The translations under genes and the position numbers were made by a program. From Hormiphora californensis (taxonomy: Eukaryota > Animalia > Ctenophora): 64,000 bases of DNA. Below the pieces are notes generated by a model that was not told where the DNA came from, made no database searches, and saw only the letters and a list, made by a program, of their open reading frames with translations. The stretch is from contig CM035356.1 in assembly GCA_020137815.1 (NCBI GenBank), forward strand, positions 7,254,001-7,318,000, given 5' to 3'. This document shows, piece after piece, positions 48,001 through 51,000 of this stretch (positions are counted from its first letter, which is position 1; the number at the start of each line of letters is the position of its first letter).

Positions 48001-51000
48001 GAGAATGTGTTCAAAAGTGAAATATGCACTGTCAAAAGTAGAACTGGTGAAGAGAGGTTCCGGCCTAATAATATCTACCAGTTTTGGTGTGATTTCAATC
48101 ATTTTTTTGTATGTTGATCCGTGCAGATGTACTAGAACTGGTGAAGAGAGGTTGGGATCGCGAAACTAAAAAACAAATAATTTTTGACGTCATTTTGACG
48201 TCATGACGTTATTGACGCGACGTCACGATGTTACAAACGTCACATTGATGACGGAAAATCATCAGGATTATCTAGATGAAGATGCTGACCAAGTTTGAGA
48301 TCAATTGTATGATATTTGATCCCGCTATGGCGAAAAACAGCTTTCTGTTTTCACACTTTCGGCACAATTTTTTATATATTTTTATATATTTTTTATATAT
48401 TTTTATATATTTTTATATATTCATATGTATTTTTATATATTTTTACAGTCGGACCCCGATTTAGTGGCCCCCGATTTAGTGGCACCCCGATTTAGTGACA
48501 GGATTTTTTCCCCCAAAAATTTTTTTTGATTTTTTAAAATTTTTTTTGAAAATTTTTCAAAGGAATACCAGCCACGTCCGAATCGTATTTCGAATCAGTG
48601 AATCTTATCACATGTCCTGCTGCTAATTAGACGGTTTGGAACGAACTGATATATGATCCCCATGGGGGCCATTGAATCATAAGTTCACCAAGCGTCAAAA
48701 TTTCGATTCGATGGGGATCACGTTTCGATTCGTTCCGAACCGTCTAATTAGCAGCAGGACATGCGATAAGATGCACCGATTCGAAACACGATTTGGACGT
48801 GGCTGGTATACCTTTAAAAAATTTAAAACTTTTTTTGCAAAATTTTACAGTACGATTGTCAATGCTTTGATCGGTGCTCCCCATAAATTTTGAGAGAAAA
48901 AGTTATTTTGAAATTTTGATACTTCCTCACCCGCTTAGGGTGCCCCGATTTGGCATGGTATCACGTATCGGTTCGTTTCGAACCGTCTAATTAGCAACAG
49001 GACATGCGATAAGATGCACTGATTCGAAAAACGATTCGGACGGGCTGGTATACCTTTAAAAAATTTAAAACTTTTTTTGCAAAATTTTACAGTACGATTG
49101 TCAATGCTTTGATCGGTGCTCCCCATAAATTTTGAGAGAAAAAGTTATTTTGAAATTTTGATACTTCCTCACCCGCTTAGGGTGCCCCGATTTGGCATGG
49201 TATCACGTATCGGTTCGTTTCGAACCGTCTAATTAGCAACAGGACATGCGATAAGATGCACTGATTCGAAAAACGATTCGGACGGGCTGGTATAACTTAG
49301 AAAATTTTTCACAATTTTTTTGAAAAACTTTTCAACACTACTTTAAACAAATTAATTTGAGTTTGCCGTCAATCGTTCCGATAACTGTGTTAGCATCTAT
49401 TCTCTAATCTTTTAGATCTCTGTTAGGCCTACTTTAACTTAACTTACGAGTGATATCTGTGAAGAGTTTGTTGTTGGCCGGCGTGCAACGGGTGTTTTAG
49501 GATGACCGTTACGAGTAATTATGACATATGTATCACTAAGAGTGATTTTGAAGACGTGTTATCAGGAGAAGTATTTAGCAATGATTATAAGGGTAGTGAT
49601 TTGTTAGTGTGCCTTGAGAGGGGTGACACTGTTTGTCCGTCGTCTGTCCATAAACCTCAGTTGTGGCATCTTCTCAAAGCCTGCTACAGTATGCTTCCGG
49701 CGTCGGCACCGTTTTCTGTTCCTGGAGACCAAACTGATCTGAAAGAGTCGTTTGCAAAACTGCACAAAGATCTGGTTTCGACTATCTCTGCTTTGGTCAA
49801 ACCTATGGAGAATGGGAAAAGTGATATTGTTGGTGGTGATCCAGAGGAACCGGTTACACCTACGATGAAACACTACGTGAATATTACGACTGGCATCAAT
49901 GAGGAAGGAGGGTCAGGATTCTGTGCTAAGAAGTGGACTGATGAGGTCAAACCCAAAGTGGAAACTGCGTTGAAGACGATACCGGTGGTGAGATCCAGAG
50001 TGAACAGTGACCATACCCGGCTGTATTTCCCTAATGAGGACCAGATGAAGGAAGCGGAGAAAGTTTTGACTCCTCTTGCACAGGACTGTTCGATGTCATT
50101 CTTCTCAGAGGAGGCCAAGAAGCTTGAACCGAAAGTGACGATTAATGATTTGAACCCTGATCTACTGGAAAAGGAGACTATCCTGGCAGCGATTTTGGAC
50201 AAAAATGAGGATATCAGAAAGCTTTATCATGAGGATAAGAAGTTGAAAGTGGTGTTTGTGAGTGAAAGAGACAGGTATGCAGTGATCCAGATGGCTCCAG
50301 AGATCCGGAGGCTTTTGTCTAACAACGGTGATAAACTCAACTTAGGTCTTCGACAACATTTTGTCAAGAACAGGTATCATGTGATTCAGTGCTATCACTG
50401 TCAAGGATATGGACATATAGCAGGCTCGATCTACTGTCCACAGAAGGAAAATCCTGTATGCTGCTTTTGTGCTGGAACACACCAGACAAAGGAGTGTAGA
50501 GCAAAGAAGAACAACGAAACTGGTAAGATGAAGTGTGTAAACTGTTCGGCTGGAGGATCAAGAGAGGATAAGAAGTATGCGAGGACCCATACAGCTTCTA
50601 GTATGTGGTGTCCCTCGTACATCAATGAACGTGCACGGCTTATGGAGAGGACTTCAGGTGTAAGCAAAGAGGGAAAAAACCTGTACTGGACGAGGACAAA
50701 GGAGGAACTACACAGGAAAAGACTTGGAAGATTGGGACATTAAATGTCCGCTCTCTAGTCAACAAAACTGGAGGTGTTATTTCACATCTGGAAGACGCGG
50801 ATTGTGATATCTGTCTCATACAGGAAACATTTTTAAAGTCCACTGACACAGGGAAACTCCAGGAAATCAGGGATAATGGATGGGATATCTTCTCATGCCC
50901 CAGAGGAGACAGAGGAGGTGGCGGGATCGGAATTCTTTTTCGAGATGGTATAGTTCTTCGGCAGTGTCCGGTAAAGACCAAGTATAAGTCATTTCAAGTT

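Follow-up and report, generated by a model that had tools for sequence, protein, structure and literature searches.

In flatworms, Calvelo et al. (2025, PMC12582326) discarded 597 genomic spliced-leader (SL) loci lying beside LTR and LINE elements, and Boroni et al. (2018, PMC5832876) reported six SL-containing elements in Schistosoma; such loci are read by the authors as integrated RNA of trans-spliced retrotransposons (PMC12582326; PMC5832876). RNAs of animal transposable elements (TEs), including those associated with LINE/CR1, acquire the host SL in Hydra (PMC12220107) and Heterodera (PMC6362198), and around 30% of the TE Iso-Seq reads of Hydra carry it (PMC12220107). Elements of the NeSL/CRE/SLACS class are targeted to SL RNA genes and possess a single ORF in which the reverse transcriptase (RT) is followed by a restriction-like endonuclease, and the 5' end of R2 is defined by a ribozyme (PMC3636483), likewise that of L1Tc (PMC3185411). 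Retrogenes bearing SL relics in dinoflagellates were reportedly described by Slamovits and Keeling in 2008. Dinoflagellate retrogenes derive from reverse-transcribed trans-spliced RNA and hold a 5'-shortened SL in the DNA; an AG within the relic has been proposed to accept another SL (Song et al. 2017, PMC5585692).

SL-tagged retroelements had been suggested before for flatworms and Hydra; the case described here is a ctenophore LINE clade with the SL head in its DNA. Like the flatworm loci, the ctenophore LINE presents a partial SL in genomic DNA at a retroelement; however, the flatworm reports, in the portions accessible, mention it in passing and give neither the anatomy of the junctions nor a survey of families, whereas the ctenophore junction is exact, near-complete and clade-wide (33–86% ORF1 identity). 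In Hydra and Heterodera the SL was seen on TE RNA, while here it is fixed in DNA as the first bases of the LINE. The dinoflagellate relics have cellular genes as cargo and can be stacked, in contrast to the unstacked relic with LINE cargo. NeSL, CRE, SLACS and CZAR are likewise non-LTR elements adjoining an SL exon, but they are R2-group elements specific to SL genes, whereas the present LINE has an APE endonuclease, two ORFs and unrelated insertion sites. With R2 and L1Tc it would have in common, if the best explanation given below holds, a 5' end cut from a longer transcript; there a ribozyme does the cutting, whereas here the host spliceosome would cut and cap, and no Rfam ribozyme is matched. 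No ctenophore SL-headed LINE or renewal cycle was found in the literature within reach, subscription papers and Repbase reports lying mostly beyond it; the main texts of PMC11797021 and PMC11184263 make no mention of a leader or trans-splicing, and the accessible portions of PMC7986045, PMC3942190, PMC6053224, PMC2566580 and PMC5009743 hold nothing on SL-headed LINEs.

The window, that is the whole stretch of DNA analysed, comprises 64,000 nt of Hormiphora californensis contig CM035356.1 and contains the following features.
45397–56330, plus strand: putative first intron of a host gene resembling MFS/sugar transporters, containing the LINE in sense.
48444–54220, no strand assigned: TA-flanked inverted-repeat element (MITE-like) with 25-nt perfect terminal inverted repeats, host of the LINE.
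49325–49361, plus strand: SL relic, the last 37 of the 43 nt of the SL exon.
49362–49501, plus strand: 5' UTR of 140 nt, ATG-free, its first AG at 49392–49393.
49502–50743, plus strand: ORF1 of 413 aa with three Cys/His knuckle-like motifs near the C-terminus.
50629–53666, plus strand: ORF2 with APE endonuclease and RT, split over two frames by a one-base break near 52238.
50674–50680, plus strand: heptamer A-AAA-AAC, where ORF1 and ORF2 overlap, a candidate site of -1 frameshifting.
53993–54010, plus strand: (ATT)n tail, the end of the element, lacking a target-site duplication.

The element has the anatomy of an APE-type non-LTR retrotransposon (LINE), namely an N-terminal APE domain (PF03372, E 2.6e-13) and RT (PF00078, E 4e-26) in ORF2, both Pfam matches above cutoff, an upstream ORF1 and a simple-repeat 3' tail, which is of the same type in the relative L015. 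Neither a terminal direct repeat or LTR nor a target-site duplication was found at the element, the longest word common to both its ends being 5 nt. ORF1 of the window gave no Pfam match; weak zf-CCHC matches occur in ORF1 of two relatives (L021 and L003), and the three Cys/His motifs are kept in all seven clade members, i.e. the window LINE and the six relatives described below. It is a full-length and likely L2-type LINE, the L2 label being taken from C-terminal and 3'-end motifs. Three CCHC-like knuckles, an APE-RT ORF2, a short tandem-repeat tail and the lack of a target-site duplication are equally features of L2/CR1-group LINEs with type I ORF1, whose accessible description makes no mention of an SL head; type I ORF1 is also found in I, Jockey, R1 and Tad1 (PMC4120745). 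Near 52238 the window ORF2 is 1 base shorter than the intact ORF2 of the relative L007, so the window copy would be either broken or misassembled there.

A-AAA-AAY is the sole in-frame heptamer of its type in the ORF1 of each clade member (window, L003, L007, L008, L015, L021 and L034), and the codon preceding it encodes six different residues across the seven. The -1 frame, which is that of ORF2, opens 2–16 codons before the heptamer, with no shared ATG ahead of the first endonuclease motif. From this arrangement a -1 ribosomal frameshift yielding an ORF1-ORF2 fusion appears likely; no strong hairpin was found 3' of the heptamer (z -1.0 to +1.3). In an Rfam search of 47000–52000 three matches fell under the gathering score, with no SL RNA and no ribozyme.

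The MITE-like element in which the LINE resides also holds internal 242-nt repeats. Thirteen exons delimited by eye, separated by GT..AG introns, add up to a single open frame in the orientation of the LINE, with PF00083 matches in two exons of the putative transporter gene. The sense orientation of the LINE within a host intron, as proposed in the initial annotation, is in agreement with its place in the inferred first intron of this transporter-like frame. The same inferred intron contains, in antisense, a 5'-truncated relative of the LINE clade (46860–47927, minus strand, 68% over 292 nt). Elsewhere in the window, 29910–30920 is a 3' fragment of another LINE with a weak RT match, presumably CR1-like by its motifs.

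The 37 nt of the relic agree in every base with the 3'-terminal 37 nt of the published H. californensis leader, as compared by eye with its printed sequence (PMC8527503), and with those of the exon at an SL RNA gene locus, L022, recovered from metagenome contigs.
L022, 693–860: ctenophore SL RNA gene array with exon, GTAAG donor and 778-nt spacing.
The start of the 43-nt SL exon was deduced from L022 together with mRNA contigs, and by this measure the window relic is without 6 nt of the exon. The published leader has an additional 5' G that is absent from the L022 gene, where the deduced exon start is A; this G may be cap-derived or reflect a difference between species. For a 20-nt piece of the relic the window has a single occurrence, where chance would give 0.01.

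The initial annotation had read the 37-mer as a ctenophore SL without its first few bases, followed by a 140-nt 5' UTR and ORF1, and had held that it was no insertion into an SL RNA gene, all of which is borne out. Directly 3' of the SL exon stands TT and not the GT donor of an SL RNA gene, no part of the window matches the L022 intron or upstream region at E<=0.1, and the flanks are MITE-like. The exact 3' end of the exon abuts the UTR, with SL-gene sequence absent and the flanks unrelated. At the 5' joint, relatives of the flank repeat without the insertion (records 1 and 24 of the contig alignment) align through 49327, which points to a 3-nt microhomology; the first three relic bases (AAA) could equally be of target origin.

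Contigs from metagenomes were scanned with the last 29 nt of the SL, a query to which SL-less full-length copies are invisible. The scan yielded 34 distinct loci, comprising 23 loci classed as mRNA-like on three features (SL at most 7 nt from the contig end, a long ORF following, window ORFs unmatched), one SL RNA gene array and 10 element-like loci. Within this small sample 10 of the 11 non-mRNA loci are thus LINEs or LINE-ORF1-like and one is an SL gene array, arrays being collapsed by assemblers; none reads as a cellular retrogene. Relatives of both window ORF1 and ORF2 are encoded by six of the ten element-like loci, with ORF1 identities to the window of 86% (L007), 47% (L015), 44% (L003, L008 and L034) and 33% (L021). 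L007 has the same SL-UTR junction in another flank, at 84.5% DNA identity and with an intact ORF2; intact ORF2 frames of 1013 aa in L007 and 1008 aa in L015 are both accompanied by SL and intact ORF1. Compared with the window, ORF2 of L008 has about 100 additional in-frame residues between endonuclease and RT.

The four element-like loci unrelated to the window clade are SL-headed too. L020 encodes a different ORF1 and then an endonuclease; L016 and L032 encode a third ORF1-like protein (27% identity between them) with no ORF2 behind it; and L031 has a PHD-like ORF interrupted by a tandem repeat. For the proteins of L016, L032 and L031 we infer the ORF1 label. In L032 an (AAT)n tail closes the element at about 1.1 kb, and L032 (462–1656, about 1.2 kb) and L016, with ORF1-like sequence only, represent possible non-autonomous half-LINEs. 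The first 60 nt after the SL in L016, L020, L031 and L032 contain a short UTR motif common to unrelated ORFs, in which GCCC/GGGC may form a hairpin. In three of these four loci the stretch begins with TTT(C/T)AG, which has the look of a canonical acceptor and lies 6 nt behind the SL. A 5' flank of 17–461 nt is present in seven of the ten element-like loci; L008, L015 and L031, with 6, 5 and 1 nt of flank respectively, could be RNA-derived contigs. An exact SL 3' end joined to an mRNA body and preceded by an unrelated flank, the hallmark of an SL-relic retrocopy, is seen in the window and at 7 loci. Viral contigs contained no SL pattern, and alignment of ORF1 placed none of their 32 candidates in the window clade; in prokaryote genomes 1 of 61 aligned (L035, 32% over 106 residues), which is not a clade member and has no bearing.

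All six clade members found, each of them via the SL query, carry the SL at the same or a homologous junction, in line with what the initial annotation had expected of full-length relatives. The opposite case it had named, a one-off chimera, is contradicted by these six and by the four other SL-headed element-like loci. The ten loci keep 43, 42, 42, 42, 41, 41, 41, 40, 38 and 35 of the 43 SL bases and the window keeps 37; the SL is thus complete in one of 11 copies (L015), and the other ten are without 1–8 of its first bases. With L022 as reference, the retained bases show no change in any of the 11 copies, where the last 29 are identical by search design, while the preceding bases, at most 14, were free to vary. 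Behind the SL the UTRs are 42–92% alike across loci, figures that come without a baseline for unrelated sequence (the window UTR is 92% identical to that of L007 and 43–58% to those of the five other clade members). No upstream flank is shared, common stretches between flanks never exceeding 15 nt, and the L022 intron and upstream region match no element locus at E<=0.1, the 3' flank being visible only in the window, L015 and L032. In all seven clade members the junction falls at the last base of the SL exon and the LINE side is full-length; stacked SL relics occur at none of the 11 loci.

An exon kept up to the splice junction, divergent UTRs and absence of SL-gene sequence together make it very likely that the template RNA began at the first base of the SL, its exon being joined at the splice junction. 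Since the window LINE and its six relatives all start with the SL, the elements were likely copied from leader-spliced RNA. That the template was trans-spliced, which was the core of the initial annotation, is upheld by the exact exon 3' end joined to the UTR without SL-gene sequence, and on these sequences we regard trans-splicing of the template at some time in each lineage as highly probable.

The reading we prefer, and consider somewhat better than even, is that of a full-length LINE headed by the host SL as a clade trait, with the template trans-spliced, likely anew at each copying round. Renewal of the SL in every cycle is likely, albeit unproven; it is the likeliest reading because a complete SL stands in only one of the 11 copies, while a changed SL is seen in none of the lineages. 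In the proposed cycle a copy would be transcribed from upstream, through host read-through or a nearby start, and the spliceosome would attach a fresh SL with its cap at, or close to, the terminal AG of the old genomic SL, the flank being discarded. The RNA would then be translated and packaged, and target-primed reverse transcription would proceed to the cap, usually losing 1–8 bases, with the target joined through short microhomology; the lost bases would be restored by the next trans-splicing. The window copy would be a broken product of this route. A further-reaching form, in which several comb-jelly LINE lineages are promoterless and read through from the host, with the last AG of the SL as acceptor and an exact, capped 5' end restored each cycle by the host spliceosome, is put forward tentatively, as we hold it to be less probable than its opposite.

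The acceptor proposed in the initial annotation, the terminal GAG of the window SL and the sole AG left in the relic, would be weak. The host acceptors delimited by eye are all YAG (13 of 13; 10 CAG and 3 TAG). Scored with an acceptor matrix, a rough guide built from 13 sites with leave-one-out scores of -2.3 to 12.7, the terminal GAG stands at the 70th percentile of 702 intron decoys, and the first AG of the UTR at the 6th. Several elements have better-scoring YAG sites downstream, none of which was seen to define an SL-headed copy. This should not be given too much weight, since in Schistosoma the acceptors of outrons fall short of those used in cis (PMC5832876).

Region 49200–49950 was aligned with contigs from one RNA run and from three DNA runs, two of which represent samples of organism A and the third organism B. 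Each DNA run has 24–26 contigs that carry the SL with varying sequence before 49325, and at its end their consensus shows the six SL bases missing from the window; any SL locus, and not this family alone, may be the source of these contigs. A 140-nt contig of run X1 (record 3), with 10 differences, spans 49349–49488 and thus represents a variant copy with the same SL-UTR junction. In DNA run X11 one contig passes from the SL end straight to 49394, immediately behind the first AG of the UTR; its short side is 25 nt at 80% likeness. Cis-splicing is no explanation for this junction, as the skipped 32 nt begin with TT. The junction hints at renewed trans-splicing to a second acceptor; a deletion through microhomology between two AGs would fit as well. 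The sole RNA contig over the UTR (X17, record 23) covers 49364–49502 with 13 unaligned letters at each end.

Alternatively, active copies may be masters that possess, ahead of the UTR, a promoter of their own and an outron with its acceptor, the SL-headed insertions being dead ends; as the RNA of such masters would mostly be trans-spliced, most full-length insertions would be SL-headed. Masters of this kind would account for the exact junction without a GAG acceptor and by the ordinary route of gene trans-splicing, and the window copy is itself broken. Nevertheless we judge them unlikely: among the 24 loose ends listed of 207 from the four runs none offers an alternative sequence upstream of 49362, L007 and L015 combine the SL with intact ORF1 and ORF2, and renewal from unspliced RNA would be needed in each lineage.

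An equally improbable course, in our estimate, is one ancient capture of the SL per lineage followed by cis inheritance as an initiator or promoter and translation element, with only complete copies active. A promoter role of the SL relic has been proposed for dinoflagellate retrogenes (PMC5585692), L015 has 43 of 43 SL bases with intact ORFs, no relics are stacked at the 11 loci and purifying selection could hold the SL unchanged. However, the first 1–8 SL bases are missing in ten of 11 copies, and with one complete copy in 11, a 5' end inherited solely in cis would be prone to erosion; separate captures, each followed by perfect conservation, would be required for no fewer than three unrelated ORF1 types; and the X11 contig suggests SL addition at a second site.

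Chimeras of the U6-L1 type arise by template switch and fuse a small RNA to a variably truncated LINE; here the LINE side is full-length and the junction fixed in all seven clade members. Insertion targeted to SL genes, as known for CRE and NeSL (PMC3636483), and a template switch from LINE RNA to SL RNA or to an SL-bearing mRNA are very improbable and largely refuted, since SL-gene upstream or intron sequence occurs at no element locus, the plan is APE with two ORFs and not a single ORF with C-terminal restriction-like nuclease, and an exon joined at its last base, the splice junction, is a product of trans-splicing, which rules out targeting of the CRE/NeSL type.

Renewal carries a prediction, namely that copies without the first SL bases give rise to RNAs having those bases. 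LINEs must regenerate their own 5' end, for which an internal promoter and a ribozyme are the solutions known. The clade-wide SL head points to a third route for the renewal of a LINE 5' end, host trans-splicing, and this in an animal. Published counts of genomic leader copies stand at 718 for H. californensis and 491 for M. leidyi (PMC8527503). If the promoterless re-splicing cycle is true, most of the genomic "leader" copies of ctenophores would be retrotransposon heads and not SL RNA genes. SL-headed insertions may also bring new acceptors into host introns.
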